Source: Candidatus Gallispira sp. (lineage in GTDB: Bacteria; Bacillota; Clostridia; Lachnospirales; CAG-274). From it: DNA of 64,000 nucleotides. Below, piece by piece: positions 25,504 to 31,577 of the stretch (position 1 is the stretch's first letter; each line of letters begins with the position of its first letter). The notes below the pieces were generated by a model. The model searched no databases. It was not told the origin of the DNA and saw only the letters and a list, made by a program, of their open reading frames with translations. Location: NCBI GenBank assembly GCA_048359195.1, contig DBGCRA010000196.1, positions 843 to 64,842 of the forward strand, written 5' to 3'. Both the position numbers and the translations under genes were made by a program.

Positions 25504-25775
25504 TCCTGTGCATCCAACTTCGACAGTAGCCTCCAAGCGTTACTGCAGGTTTTGACTCAAATCAAGCTACCTTGCAACACACGAGAGGGACTGCTTAGTG
25601 CTGCTTCCTTCCGGATCTGACACGGTTCACAGATTCCCGTTGTGCAAGACTCAATCGTCAACATCAAAAGCCTGCAGGCTGACCCTACAAACTAAAGCCT
25701 CGGTTCGGACATAATCTCTGCTAAAGCGGATTGCAGACTACAGGGCACCGCTACCTCCCCGACTAGCACAGGACT
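25504..25775 (-). ncRNA. ffs: Signal recognition particle RNA, long Bacillus/Clostridium type (scRNA)
   Basis: GC-rich island. The reverse complement reads ...GTGCTAGTCGGGGAGGTAGCGGTGCCCTGTAGTCTGCAATCCGC...GTCAGATCCGGAAGGAAGCAGCACTAAG..., matching the B. subtilis scRNA Alu-domain and helix-8 (GGAAGGAAGCAGC) blocks. 5'/3' ends pair (TCCTGTGC/GCACAGGA) and a T6 follows. Lies downstream of tadA, as in Bacillus. Confidence 0.88.
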
Positions 25776-26466: not shown

Positions 26467-26913
26467 TTATCTGAATTTTTTAAAAAAATTCTTCATTAAT
26501 TTGGCACACTCCTCTTGTCTTATGCCCTCTGTGATTTCTGCCTTATGATTAAATCTGTCCTCTTGAAGCAGATTGTAGATTGAGCCTGCACAGCCTGCCT
26601 TTGTATTTCTTGTACCAAAGACAACCTCTTTTATCCTTGCCTGAAGTATAGCTCCCGCACACATTGGACAAGGCTCAACTGTTACAAAAAGGGTGCAGTC
26701 CTCAAGCCGCCAGTCCCCCATAAAGCCGCAAGCCTCATTTATGGCTATAATTTCAGCGTGGGCAAGTACATTTCCTTTGGTTATTCTTAAGTTTGCACCT
26801 TTGCCTATAACCCGGTCATTGTATACAATTACACAGCCTATAGGTACTTCGTTGCTGTTGTAGGCAATTTGTGCCTGTTCCAATGCCATATCCATATATT
26901 TTTGGTAGTCCAT
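26467..26913 (-). CDS. tadA: tRNA-specific adenosine deaminase
   Basis: CMP/dCMP deaminase zinc motifs HAEIIAI and TVEPCPMCAGAI. About 148 aa. Linked to ffs. Confidence 0.9.
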   Translation of the reverse strand: MDYQKYMDMALEQAQIAYNSNEVPIGCVIVYNDRVIGKGANLRITKGNVLAHAEIIAINEACGFMGDWRLEDCTLFVTVEPCPMCAGAILQARIKEVVFGTRNTKAGCAGSIYNLLQEDRFNHKAEITEGIRQEECAKLMKNFFKKFR

Positions 26914-27020
26914 AATTTCCCTCCTGTTGGGTAAAATTATTGTTTAGCAGATTAGTTACTCTATAAATTAATATGTATAGCCGTGCTAAACAAATGTGAG
27001 AACCTTGCCATTTAGGCAAG

Positions 27021-27108
27021 AACCTCACGTAAATTCAAAAGCTGCCAATTTTGCTTGGTGCAAAAACCTCACGTAAATTCAAAAGCTGCCAATTTTGCTT
27101 GGTGCAAA
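27021..27108. repeat. Perfect 2 x 44-bp tandem direct repeat
   Basis: AACCTCACGTAAATTCAAAAGCTGCCAATTTTGCTTGGTGCAAA occurs at 27021-27064 and identically at 27065-27108. Confidence 0.95.
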
Positions 27109-27236
27109 AACGATTTTTTATTATAGAATAGGGAAAAATCACGTTTTTGCACAGCATCGCAGTCGTTGTTTGTATATTATTAAAAAATAATATAACAGAC
27201 AAACTTTGTGCGACCGCAAAATGCTTTTGAATTATT

Positions 27237-27276: not shown

Positions 27277-27981
27277 TTATAACGGTTTTCTATCAATCTT
27301 CTTAGCTCTTCTGGGATACATATCCGGAGTATTTTTTATCTTTTTTATTACCACAACAGTATGTTTTAAATCGGTATCAGGCAAAGTTATTTCCTCTACA
27401 TTTATAATTTCTCCCCCAAGTTCAGCTACAGCGTTTTTAGCCCTTTCAATTTCATCATATGCGGCAGGTCCTTTTAATGCAATCATAAGTCCGCCTACCT
27501 TAACAAAGGGTAAGTCATACTCGCAAAGTATATTAAGGGGCGCAACAGCTCTTGATAGGGCTATATCAAATTTTTCTCTGTAATTTTCATCCTGTCCCAG
27601 CTCCTCTGCTCTGCCGTGAACAAATTCTGCATTTGTGTTTGTTTTTCTGCATACATCTTTAAGGAAATTAAGCCTTTTTGTAAGTGAGTCCAAAAGTGTG
27701 AGTTTTATGGATGGACAGGTTATTTTTAAAGGCAGTCCGGGAAAACCTGCACCTGTTCCTACATCAATTACATTTTTGTTTTCAAAATCTGCAATATTAA
27801 GAACTGTTACACTGTCTGCAAAGTGCTTTACAGCTACCTCACTGTCTTCGGTAATACCTGTTAAATTCATTACTTTATTCCATTCTACAAGGAGATTTTT
27901 GTATATGACAAAGGTGTCAGCCTGATTTTTGTCAATTTCTATATTCATTTTCTTGAAATAATCTGTTATAAACTTGTTCAT
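27277..27981 (-). CDS. rsmG: 16S rRNA (guanine527-N7)-methyltransferase
   Basis: 234 aa. VDVGTGAGFPGLPLKI SAM motif and an overall GidB-like pattern. Confidence 0.92.
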   Translation of the reverse strand: MNKFITDYFKKMNIEIDKNQADTFVIYKNLLVEWNKVMNLTGITEDSEVAVKHFADSVTVLNIADFENKNVIDVGTGAGFPGLPLKITCPSIKLTLLDSLTKRLNFLKDVCRKTNTNAEFVHGRAEELGQDENYREKFDIALSRAVAPLNILCEYDLPFVKVGGLMIALKGPAAYDEIERAKNAVAELGGEIINVEEITLPDTDLKHTVVVIKKIKNTPDMYPRRAKKIDRKPL

Positions 27982-28721
27982 CAGTCTAAATGCCTTGCCT
28001 TTCTTACTCCCTTTAAAATTACCTTTTTACATTCAACTGCTTTGCTCTTATCCATTGCCTCGACTCCTTTTAATGGATACTCCATACCAAGTGCTTCGTA
28101 TTTTTTAACACCCATTGTGTGATAAGGCAAAACGTCAAGAGCTTTAACATTTTTAAGAGAGCCTATAAACTCTCCGAGCATAAATAAATATTTTTCATCG
28201 TCTGTTATTCCGGGTACAACAACGTGTCTTATCCACATAGGTATATTGTTTTTGTCAAGATATTTTGCAAAGGCAATAATATTGTCATTTTTTTGTGCCG
28301 TAAGGTCGATATGTGAACTTGGGTCAATATGCTTTATGTCAAGCATAACAAGGTTTGTATATTTAATAAGCTCATCGAATTTTGTTGTGTTTTCAGGTGT
28401 AAAAGTTATTCCCGATGTATCAAGACAGGTATGAATATTTTCTTCTCTGCATTTTTTGAAAAGCTCAGTGACAAAATCTATTTGCATTAAAGGTTCACCG
28501 CCTGTTGCGGTAATTCCTCCGTTTTTATAAAATGACCTGTTTCTGTTAAAGGCATCAATAATTTCATCAACTGACATTTCCGTGCCTCCTGTCATTTCCC
28601 ATGTATCAGGGTTGTGACAGTACTTGCATCTCATTGGACAGCCCTTGAAGAAAACCACAAAACGTATGCCCGGACCATCTACGCTGCCAAAGCTTTCTAT
28701 TGAATGTATGTGTGCTTTCAT
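27981..28721 (-). CDS. pflA: Pyruvate formate-lyase activating enzyme (radical SAM)
   Basis: IHSIESFGSVDGPGIRFVVFFKGCPMRCKYCHNPDTW (CxxxCxxC), GGITATGGEPL. Start at MKAHIHS after an AAGGAG SD. Confidence 0.93.
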   Translation of the reverse strand: MKAHIHSIESFGSVDGPGIRFVVFFKGCPMRCKYCHNPDTWEMTGGTEMSVDEIIDAFNRNRSFYKNGGITATGGEPLMQIDFVTELFKKCREENIHTCLDTSGITFTPENTTKFDELIKYTNLVMLDIKHIDPSSHIDLTAQKNDNIIAFAKYLDKNNIPMWIRHVVVPGITDDEKYLFMLGEFIGSLKNVKALDVLPYHTMGVKKYEALGMEYPLKGVEAMDKSKAVECKKVILKGVRKARHLD

Positions 28722-28743
28722 TTTAATCTCCTTTTTTAAAATC

Positions 28744-28775: not shown

Positions 28776-28791
28776 AATTTTATTATAAACC

Positions 28792-28821
28792 AAAAAAGGC
28801 GGTTAGTAAACCGCCTTTTTC
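28792..28821 (-). terminator. Intrinsic terminator after the glycyl-radical mini-gene
   Basis: On the minus strand: AAAAAGGCGGTTTACTAACCGCCTTTTTTGG. Confidence 0.85.
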
Positions 28822-28827
28822 TTTTAA

Positions 28828-29067
28828 TTAAAATTTATCGTGGAAAGTTCTTGAAATAACTTCATCCTGCTGTTCCTTAGTAAGCTTATTAAAGTTTACG
28901 GCATAGCCTGAAACTCTTACAGTAAGCTGTGGATACTTTTCAGGATGAGCCTGAGCATCAAGTAAAGTTTCCTTTGTAAATACATTTACGTTTAAATGAT
29001 GACCGCCCTTTTCAGCATAGCCATCAATAATATTAACTAAATTATCAATCTGCTGTTCGTTAGACAT
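28828..29067 (-). CDS. Free-standing glycyl-radical domain protein (GrcA/YfiD-like, equals the missing C-terminus of PFL)
   Basis: 79 aa: [79 protein letters not shown]. Contains the RVSGYAV glycine-radical loop. Own GGGAGG SD. Confidence 0.85.
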
Positions 29068-29099: not shown

Positions 29100-29309
29100 T
29101 TAATCTTCTCTGTCCATACCCTCAAAGAGAGTGGGAACCTGACAGGCTAAATCTCCTTTAGCGCAGTCAAGAGATGCTGTTTTGTCGATATGGACATTGT
29201 CAGTATTTACATCACCTGTTTCATCAACAGATACATTTAAGTGTCCGCCATCGTTTGACATAAAGCTGTCAATCATAGCAACAATATCATCAATTTTATC
29301 CTGTGACAT
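29100..29309 (-). CDS. 69-aa ORF: truncated, diverged duplicate of the radical-domain N-terminal strand, no glycine loop
   Basis: [28 protein letters not shown]... aligns with the first about 29 aa of the 79-aa ORF, then diverges ([41 protein letters not shown]). AAGGAAGAG SD. Confidence 0.55.
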
Positions 29310-29324
29310 ATTAATCACTCTTCC

Positions 29325-31370
29325 TTATTTTTCTAAATCCAAGTCCACTTCAAGGTCACCGTGGAAAATCTTATCCTCTTTGCCTAAAGCACCCGGGATA
29401 ATTGAGAATGTATCAGAAATACCGTCCTGTGCATCCTTGAAAGGAATCTTTGCAACAGAAGCAAGAGAAGCTACAGCACCATGGCTATCTCTGTGGTGCA
29501 TAGGGTTAGCACCGGGGGCAAATGGTTCTCCCGCCTTTCTGCCATCCGGAGTTGAGCCTGTGTTTTTTCCATAAACTACATTAGATGTAATGGTAAGAAC
29601 AGATGTAGTAGGAACACCGTCTCTGTAAGTGTGGTTCATCTTAACATAATCAAGGAATGTAGATACTAAATCTCTTGCAATATCGTCAACTCTGTCATCG
29701 TCGTTGCCGTACTTAGGGAAATCGCCCTCAACCTCATAGTCAATAACAATGCCGTTTTCATCTCTTACAGTCTTAACCTTAGCATACTTAATAGCTGAAA
29801 GTGAATCGGCAACTACAGAAAGACCTGCAATACCTGTTGCAAACCAACGTGTAATATTTTTATCGTGTAATGCCATTTGCAATCTTTCATAGCTATACTT
29901 ATCATGCATATAGTGAATAATGTTAAGAGCGTTTACATATACGCCTGCAAGCCACTTCATCATATCCTTGTATTTATCCATTACTTCGTCATAATCAAGG
30001 TATTCTGATGTAATAGGTCTGTACTTTGGACCAACCTGCTTCTTTGAAATTTCGTCAACACCACCGTTAATAGCGTATAAAAGACACTTGGCAAGGTTAG
30101 CTCTTGCACCGAAGAACTGCATTTCCTTACCGATTCTCATAGAAGATACGCAGCATGCAATAGCGTAGTCATCACCGTGGTAAACTCTCATAAGGTCATC
30201 ATTTTCATACTGAATTGAAGATGACGCAATAGAAGTCTTTGCACAAAATCTCTTAAAGTTCAAAGGAAGTCTTGTAGACCAGAGAACTGTTAAGTTAGGC
30301 TCGGGAGCTGTACCTAAATTCTGTAAAGTATGAAGGTATCTGTAGCTCATCTTGGTAACCATATGTCTGCCGTCAATCCCAACACCACCGATAGATTCTG
30401 TTACCCAAGTAGGGTCGCCTGAGAAAAGTGCATTGTATTCAGGTGTTCTTGCAAACTTAACAAGTCTTAACTTCATAATAAAGTGATCAACAAATTCCTG
30501 AATTTCATCTTCAGTAAACGTACCATTCTTTAAATCTCTTTCTGCATAAATATCAATAAATGTAGAAGTTCTGCCTAAACTCATTGCAGCACCGTTCTGC
30601 TCCTTAACAGCAGCAAGATAAGCCAAATAAGTCCACTGTATAGCTTCCTGAACATTTGCGGCAGGTCTTTTAATATCAAAGCCGTAAATTTCGCCAAGCT
30701 GAACTAATTCATGCAAAGCTCTAATCTGCTCTGAAATTTCCTCCCTGTTTCTTATAACGTCTTCTGTCATTGTCTGACGGCAACGTGACTTTTCAGCCTC
30801 TTTATCTGCAATAAGTCTGTCAACGCCGTAAAGAGCAACTCGTCTGTAGTCGCCTATAATACGTCCTCTGCCGTAAGCATCAGGCAGACCTGTAATAATA
30901 TGAGCTGTTCTGCAGGCTCTTATTTCAGGAGTGTAAGCATCAAATACGCCGGCATTGTGAGTTTTTCTGTGAGTTGAAAAAAATTCAACAACTTCAGGGT
31001 CAACTTCATAACCATTGTCTTTACATGCCTTAACTGCCATTCTGATACCGCCATAAGGCTGAAGTGAACGTTTAAATGGCTTGTCTGTCTGGAAGCCTAC
31101 AATTTTTTCCTTGTTTTTATCTAAATAACCTGCGCCGTGAGATGTAATGGTTGAAATAACCTTTGTGTCCATATCCAGCACGCCGCCTGCCTCCAATTCC
31201 TTTTTTGAAAGGTCCATAACCTGCTCCCAAAGCTCCTGAGTAGCCTTGGTTGGGCCTGCAAGGAAAGCATCGTCACCATCATAAGGTGTATAATTTTTCT
31301 GAATAAAATCTCTTACATTGATTTCTCTCTGCCATACACCATTGACAAAGCCATTCCATTCTTGATTCAT
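29325..31370 (-). CDS. pflB: Pyruvate formate-lyase catalytic core, lacking the C-terminal glycyl-radical domain
   Basis: 681 aa. PFL N-terminus, active-site [27 protein letters not shown] and [18 protein letters not shown]. Ends ...[27 protein letters not shown], about 80 aa short of full-length PflB. Confidence 0.9.
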
Positions 31371-31577
31371 TTTCTCTCCTCCAAATCATATTGTTAATAA
31401 TCTATTTTAACTGTTGTCAAGTTTTATATTGTTTTGTCTGCTTGACAGCATAATGATATCATACTTGTTAATATTATGTCAATACAAAAATCAAAATAAT
31501 TAATAATAATTATTATTTAAAGTTATTAGCTTTAGCTAACTCATAGTAAAACCGTCGGAAATTAATTTTTTAAAGTT

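Follow-up and report, generated by a model that had tools for sequence, protein, structure and literature searches.

A conserved small protein of split pyruvate formate-lyase loci that combines a docking-like segment with a cysteine module

Background

What is the role of a 69-codon open reading frame (ORF) that lies between the gene for the core of a pyruvate formate-lyase (PFL) and the gene for its glycyl radical domain? The question is raised by a contig of Candidatus Gallispira sp., of which a stretch of 64,000 nucleotides (hereafter the window) was analysed, and for which a preliminary description had offered two interpretations of the ORF: a placeholder or cap without a radical, in competition with the radical domain, or what is left of a partial tandem duplication. 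PFL holds a central place in anaerobic sugar fermentation and is abundant in gut bacteria, and both the exit of its glycyl radical domain from the barrel to meet the activase and the recognition of damaged enzyme by spare-part proteins have been studied with engineered truncations of the Escherichia coli enzyme. The locus bears on both processes, as this type of locus represents a natural, dissected version of the enzyme, consisting of a core, an apparent docking-segment mimic with a Cys module, a radical subunit and an activase. At least 253 species carry such a locus, culturable Hungatella, Lacrimispora and Enterocloster among them, and it offers a system, widespread in gut Clostridia, for experiments on recognition, activation and oxygen repair.

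Two elements of this arrangement are already known: the 79-aa neighbour of the ORF has the NCBI name GrcA3, and the PDB contains a relative of the core that has a Cys tail. The small protein itself is annotated as hypothetical in the source databases, and no Pfam family, NCBIfam family or paper describing it was found. Literature searches likewise found no paper on split PFLs, GrcA3 or the PDB entries 38la and 38lb, and in a 2026 review on glycyl radical enzymes a keyword search met with the E. coli type of spare part only. Annotation pipelines label the neighbouring protein a 'spare' cofactor; in these loci it is the sole radical domain encoded next to the core. The present analysis adds an unannotated protein family to this very common gut operon.

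Results

Organisation of the split PFL locus

The core gene occupies positions 29325..31370 of the minus strand and encodes a protein of 681 aa with an active-site Cys-Cys pair at residues 406-407 and no glycyl radical domain. A Pfam scan identifies a PFL-like domain followed by only positions 1-51 of the 106 in the Gly_radical model, and positions 2-665 of the 744 in NCBIfam TIGR01255 are covered; residues of the core were related to E. coli PflB by alignment. The remainder of the Gly_radical model (positions 50-106), including the RVSGYAV loop, is found in the 79-aa protein encoded at 28828..29067 on the same strand, which scores 170 bits against NF038360, the autonomous glycyl radical cofactor GrcA3 (cut-off 158), and has E. 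coli PflB residues 680-756 as its aligned counterpart. With the two halves of Gly_radical split over the core and the 79-aa gene in this way, the radical domain of the enzyme is a separate gene. Downstream, at 27981..28724 on the minus strand, lies the gene for a radical SAM PFL activating enzyme (NCBIfam TIGR02493, 308 bits; Pfam Radical_SAM and Fer4_12).

The small ORF is present between the core and the 79-aa gene, as had been described, at 29100..29309 on the minus strand, with an ATG at 29309 and a TAA at 29102-29100. It shares the frame of the core gene, from which it is separated by one TAA and four codons. The Shine-Dalgarno sequence previously assigned to it (AAGGAAGAG) exists, but it is only moderate in the window; the equivalent ORFs of relatives have a clear AAGGAG or GGAGG 6-8 nt 5' of the ATG. 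Upstream of the core gene, a promoter-like site (TTGACA-18-TATCAT with a TG extension; 31453..31482, minus strand) has 11 of 12 matches, as a consensus match only, and a hairpin resembling an intrinsic terminator lies 3' of the radical-subunit gene (28792..28821, minus strand). No terminator-like or strong promoter-like site was detected on the coding (minus) strand between the three ORFs by a promoter and terminator scan, and this layout suggests that core, small ORF and radical subunit are co-transcribed.

Several other features were observed in and around the locus. Sub-threshold Rfam matches to sraA (36.5 bits), STnc40 (33.8 bits) and, on the opposite strand, Spy1786666 (30.4 bits) lie at 28781-28877, over the terminator and the 3' end of the radical-subunit gene; our guess is that coding sequence conserved at the 3' end of pfl or grcA has been included in these 'sRNA' models. 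In several related loci (L004-L008), a gene for a 56-aa 2x[4Fe-4S] ferredoxin, a possible electron donor, lies directly 3' of the activase; the window has no ferredoxin after the activase, and rsmG takes its place. Between that gene (rsmG/gidB, 27277-27981) and a deaminase-like gene (26467-26913), two tandem 44-nt units that are 98% identical occupy the intergenic positions 27016-27103 and are followed by an 18-nt inverted repeat at 27102-27152. The bacterial large SRP RNA (Rfam RF01854, 187 bits) is encoded at 25506-25771 on the minus strand. In the core itself, six radical-domain-less cores agree at F130, A276, H398, S410, H630 and G671, where nine canonical PFLs have other residues; two of these positions, H398 and S410, lie on either side of the active-site Cys loop. 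The comparison is small in sample and phylogenetically confounded.

A docking-like N-terminal module

The first part of the small protein (residues 1-28; 29226..29309, minus strand) is made up of a helix and a strand, GGHLNVSV, and has paralogues in the N-terminus of GrcA3 and in the beta10 region of PFL. The resemblance to the start of the 79-aa protein that had been noted from the sequence is detected by BLASTP (11 identities in 27 positions, residues 2-28 against 3-29, E = 1e-6) and also by comparison of the profiles of the two families (96.8% probability, E = 2.4e-10, residues 2-33 against 3-34). No similarity between the two extends past residue 33 in the profile-profile comparison; hence the kinship is limited to the helix and first strand, in agreement with the proposed partial duplication of the docking segment, the homology at profile level being confined to the first ~30 residues. 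The only NCBIfam match of the small protein is a sub-threshold one to GrcA3 (21.3 bits against a cut-off of 158, model positions 2-31), and it falls below the cut-offs of NF038360, NF008341 and TIGR04365. No Pfam family matches it at E <= 1, Gly_radical (PF01228) included, and a sequence search of the PDB with the family profile finds no relative.

Within this module, none of the 45 homologues departs from D14, G22, H23 and N25, and over 134 cluster representatives the conservation of these residues is 85-93%. The same conserved residue class is found in the small protein and GrcA3 families at 14 of 27 positions, which include a hydrophobic helix face, D13, an aromatic residue and the motif G-H-x-N-[VI]-x-V. 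This sharing of conserved classes suggests that the two proteins use the same kind of socket, namely the beta10 position of the barrel. Identity of the module to the GrcA3 of the same genome (0.39) is no higher than that to the GrcA3 of other genomes (0.40), indicating that the duplication is old; judged from these alignments, the N-terminal module is an old paralogue of the N-terminus of GrcA3, that is, of the beta10 strand of the PFL barrel. An AlphaFold2 model of the small protein alone, built with the 45 homologues, has a pLDDT of 51.7 and contains only a helix at residues 3-18, and the predicted disorder outside this one helix fits a protein that folds on a partner.

Conservation and linkage of the small ORF

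The small protein has 45 close homologues of 50-100% identity. A profile search over 1.84 billion cluster representatives extends the family to 216 clusters at 50% identity, nearly all of them stand-alone proteins of 60-90 aa, and a scan of one genome per species finds relatives in 253 species genomes, with hosts such as Lacrimispora, Hungatella hathewayi, Enterocloster bolteae and Eubacterium sp. CAG:274. The reading frame is undisrupted in each of the 89 loci collected. Pooled Nei-Gojobori estimates give a dN/dS of 0.27 overall, reflecting purifying selection, with values of 0.21 for residues 1-28, 0.37 for a linker that varies in length and sequence (residues 29-45; 29175..29225, minus strand) and 0.18 for residues 46-66, which constitute the most conserved part of the protein (29112..29174, minus strand). 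No overlapping element that could own this conserved signal was found.

These data bear directly on the suggestion that the ORF is a non-functional remnant of a partial tandem duplication, which would explain why its likeness to the radical domain is confined to the N-terminal segment, and with which the frequent sharing of one frame by core and small ORF (55 of 89 loci) would also agree, an excess that may reflect shared ancestry among the loci. Decay of this kind is extremely improbable given that the ORF is everywhere intact and under constraint, that the half without homology to the radical domain is the most constrained, that the family is deep and diverse, and that its C-terminal motif also occurs on the tails of other cores. 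The ORF is a real, widely conserved gene under purifying selection, modular in construction, and not a decaying duplicate.

The order of core, small ORF and radical subunit, usually followed by the activase, is found in 88 of 88 related loci with differing flanking genes, a figure biased by the collection, since most loci were located via the small ORF itself. The small ORF is thus strictly linked to the split PFL in a locus sample that was mostly collected through it. On one 1.4-kb contig (L092), a gene like the small ORF is followed by a YitT-family gene and not by GrcA3.

Stop-codon read-through or fusion between core and small ORF was also considered, and no genuine fusion was found among the 89 loci. 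The only fused database sequence (P0207, from L090), a candidate 'Rosetta stone', was rejected as a probable sequencing artefact: relative to the 97%-identical locus L014 it carries seven substitutions clustered in 33 nt, mostly T to G, which abolish two stop codons and the ATG on a contig of 4.7x coverage. An AlphaFold2 model of this sequence reached a pLDDT of 38.8, too low to be of use.

The Cys module

The C-terminal half of the protein had been characterised as unrelated, acidic, with two Cys and without RVSGYAV. The last three properties all hold for the 69-aa sequence, and the glycine-radical loop is missing from all 45 homologues as well; 'unrelated', however, undervalues what is the best conserved part of the protein and is also found fused to other cores. 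The motif here is D-C-x(n)-A-C-x-[VI]-P-T-L-x-x-G-x-D, in the context S-L-D-C-A..., and acidic residues come after it. C49, C56, T60, L61 and G64 are invariant in the 45 homologues and the module is conserved over the 134 cluster representatives, in which the two Cys, at 92-96%, are the best-conserved residues of all. The spacing between them ranges from 1 to about 30 residues across the family and the core tails.

The position of Gly52 between the two Cys raises the possibility that the small protein is an alternative radical carrier, in which this residue would be a non-canonical radical site for the activase. By inspection, 23 residues separate the strand from Gly52, against 25 from the strand to the radical Gly in GrcA3. 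Nevertheless, only 54% of family representatives have Gly52, and the loop around it varies in length and is missing from CxC tails. The sequence also lacks an RVxG[FWY] context, a Pfam match to Gly_radical and any profile similarity past residue 33, so that a radical at Gly52 has a negligible probability. On the combined evidence of dN/dS, conservation, profiles and core tails, both the remnant and the Gly52 radical site are effectively excluded.

Supply of the Cys module in cis or in trans

The core of the window ends in an acidic, strand-like tail (29328..29369, minus strand), whose pattern ALGK[ED]Dx[IV]FxGD[LI][ED][VI][DE]L is conserved in 84 cores; among the 84 cores of loci bearing the small ORF, none has a Cys in its tail. 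Searches of the PDB and of sequence databases with the core bring to light a broader class of PFLs without a radical domain. Very close to the window core are two PDB sequences, 38lb (739 residues) and the tail-less 38la (687 residues), both named 'Formate acetyltransferase'; when the PDB is searched with the 79-aa radical-domain protein, neither 38lb_A nor 38la_A is among the matches. Structural work on a related core evidently exists. A metagenomic relative with 95% identity (P0316, from L103) has a Cys-rich acidic tail, ..GSCDMCE...DCACEADASAKEGCED, and its gene has GrcA3 and an activase downstream.

Among 120 C-terminal fragments related to 38lb, 50 have Cys tails, 68 have short acidic Cys-free tails resembling that of the window core, and one is canonical. 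In many of the Cys tails, the motif of the small ORF directly follows the acidic strand-like tail of the core (GD[IL]EV[DE]L-DCxxGACxxPTLFEGLD), while shorter forms end in ...EKPDCAEC (Collinsella), ...DCGCC or ...DCACCEPNL. The four Cys-tail lineages that were inspected (L089, L103/L104, L105/L106 and L107) have GrcA3 28-183 nt downstream of the core gene and no small ORF. By contrast, two acidic-tail cores that were located independently of the small ORF, in Subdoligranulum variabile (L094) and a Ruminococcus metagenome-assembled genome (L109), are both accompanied by a diverged small ORF. The locus of S. variabile TSDC17.2-1.1 comprises the split PFL, a small ORF (..QIDALVERIDAFMKNGGGRMRV..RCAACCGEGAAEAC..), GrcA3 and activase. 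A further acidic-tail core (L110) has neither small ORF nor Cys tail, in a broken locus of 3.4x coverage. The occurrence of the same motif on Cys-tailed cores that have no small ORF indicates a single module, supplied either in cis or in trans; the two are not found together. This alternation provides strong comparative evidence that the Cys module works on the core.

Two side observations concern these genomes. S. variabile TSDC17.2-1.1 also encodes a canonical 759-aa PFL with its own activase (L098), and two core homologues of 805 and 821 aa (P0196 and P0198; L089, 4001-6466) contain internal tandem duplications of ~120-140 residues, which are taken to be assembly artefacts.

The tails also bear on how the small protein might sit on the enzyme. 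It could be a permanent third subunit, a clamp bound together with GrcA3 and tethering the non-covalent radical subunit, for example by adding a strand beside that of GrcA3 and wrapping its Cys and acidic peptide over it. Such an arrangement is consistent with the permanent attachment of the Cys module to the core in the Cys-tail lineages, with the strand-like acidic tail that the core itself keeps, which implies that several strand elements coexist, and with residues 696-733 of the E. coli enzyme remaining in place while YfiD is bound (PMC8683613). It is nonetheless somewhat unlikely, the 14 conserved positions of 27 that the N-terminal module has in common with GrcA3 pointing to the same socket and not to a neighbouring one.

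An alternative emphasis on the cysteines would make the small protein a redox-sensing or metal-binding regulatory subunit, in which the pair forms a disulfide or binds a metal or Fe-S centre, possibly between protomers or together with the active-site Cys pair, and gates activity or oxygen protection, loosely as in the Fe-S small subunits of benzylsuccinate synthase or 4-hydroxyphenylacetate decarboxylase. The exceptional conservation of the two Cys is in keeping with this, as are a spacing that runs from CxC and CxxC to C-x6-C and longer, which disulfide or metal loops tolerate, and the CxxC-like motifs in which some tail variants end. Against it, 70 of the 84 family members have only these two Cys, too few for a cluster of their own, GrcA3 has essentially none, and neither Pfam nor NCBIfam detects a match to the known small subunits. 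A four-Cys site completed by Cys376 and Cys429 of the core was rejected, as these are not specific to split cores and are present in canonical PFLs of Listeria, Clostridium butyricum, Agathobacter, Fusobacterium and Bacteroides. A regulatory centre of this sort must be considered quite unlikely.

Discussion

A proposed role in loading the radical subunit

The small protein represents an undescribed family belonging to the split PFL, built from a pseudo-docking segment and a Cys module, and it probably helps to load the detachable radical subunit onto the enzyme. The PFL of these loci would be assembled from three pieces, a radical-domain-less core, the small protein of ~70 residues and the detachable GrcA3, and be served by the PFL activase. 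Of the two modules of the small protein, the N-terminal helix and strand would dock in or beside the socket of GrcA3 and thereby keep the radical-less core occupied and stable; docked in this position, the protein would serve as a recognition or hand-over element for the binding of GrcA3 and its activation by the activase. The C-terminal module, a Cys finger with an acidic peptide (D-C-x(n)-A-C-x-V-P-T-L-F-E-G-x-D), probably fills or guards the cavity by the active-site Cys pair, or else senses redox state. A probability of about 0.45 is assigned to this reading, with the small protein occupying and stabilising an otherwise empty socket and mediating the recruitment and activation of GrcA3; the binding site, the competition with GrcA3 and the role of the cysteines are inferred.

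Of the two interpretations in the preliminary description, that of a placeholder or cap without a radical, in competition with the radical domain, remains the most plausible. Indirect support comes from the interface residues common to the small protein and GrcA3 and from the behaviour of residues 696-733 of the E. coli enzyme. Taken alone, this model leaves the two conserved Cys with their variable spacing unexplained. A more far-reaching proposal, although an unlikely one, is that these are 'replaceable-cofactor' PFLs. The Cys module, fused to the core or carried on a small protein together with a dummy docking segment, would then control, in response to oxygen or redox state, how the 79-aa radical subunit, itself sacrificial, is loaded, retained and exchanged. 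PFL is known for half-of-sites behaviour, and a dummy subunit could hard-wire this, one protomer being occupied by the radical subunit and the other by the dummy.

Comparison with known systems

The small protein is similar to GrcA/YfiD and GrcA3 in being small, stand-alone and encoded with a PFL, and it has in common with them the helix and beta10 segment (I-D-x-[IL]-V-x-[ML]-[IL]-D-x-[FY] ... G-H-x-N-[VI]-x-V). It differs in lacking RVSGYAV and the C-terminal two thirds of the domain, in place of which it has the Cys motif; with no glycine loop, a GrcA3 score of 21 against 158 bits and no Gly_radical match, it cannot carry the radical. The Cys-tailed cores (the close relative of 38lb/38la and sequences from metagenome-assembled genomes and Collinsella) have the same type of core with GrcA3 and activase downstream, and the same motif, DCxxGACxxPTLFEGLD, or its shorter DCxxC forms. 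They differ in that the motif is fused to the core, with neither a helix and beta10 module nor a small ORF.

Short Cys-containing accessory proteins encoded next to the gene for the catalytic subunit are also found in other glycyl radical enzymes, namely the beta and gamma subunits of benzylsuccinate synthase (BSS) and the gamma subunit of 4-hydroxyphenylacetate decarboxylase (HPAD). These bind [4Fe-4S] clusters by four Cys each, whereas the small protein has two conserved Cys and no sequence relationship to them detectable with Pfam or NCBIfam. The BSS accessory subunit is reported to regulate radical transfer (PMC12590467).

The closest parallel is with an enzyme that has been damaged. Oxygen cleaves E. 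coli PFL at Gly734, leaving residues 696-733, which include the beta10 strand that is duplicated by YfiD/GrcA (PMC8683613). When these residues are removed from the cleaved enzyme, binding of YfiD is no longer measurable, and activation by installation of the glycyl radical is 32-fold lower with kcat unchanged (PMC8683613). Andorfer et al. (2021) concluded that the 696-733 segment is a recognition element that must move aside and not be removed (PMC8683613). Like the small protein, it is a copy of beta10 that has no radical glycine and is found beside a spare radical subunit with the same strand. By contrast, it belongs to a damaged chain and is made by oxidative cleavage, whereas the protein of the window is separately encoded, carries a conserved Cys module and accompanies an enzyme that never has a radical domain of its own. 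By this analogy, the core would correspond to the truncated PFL, GrcA3 to a truncated YfiD and the small protein to the 696-733 element, so that the system in the window looks like a genetically fixed version of the cleaved E. coli enzyme.
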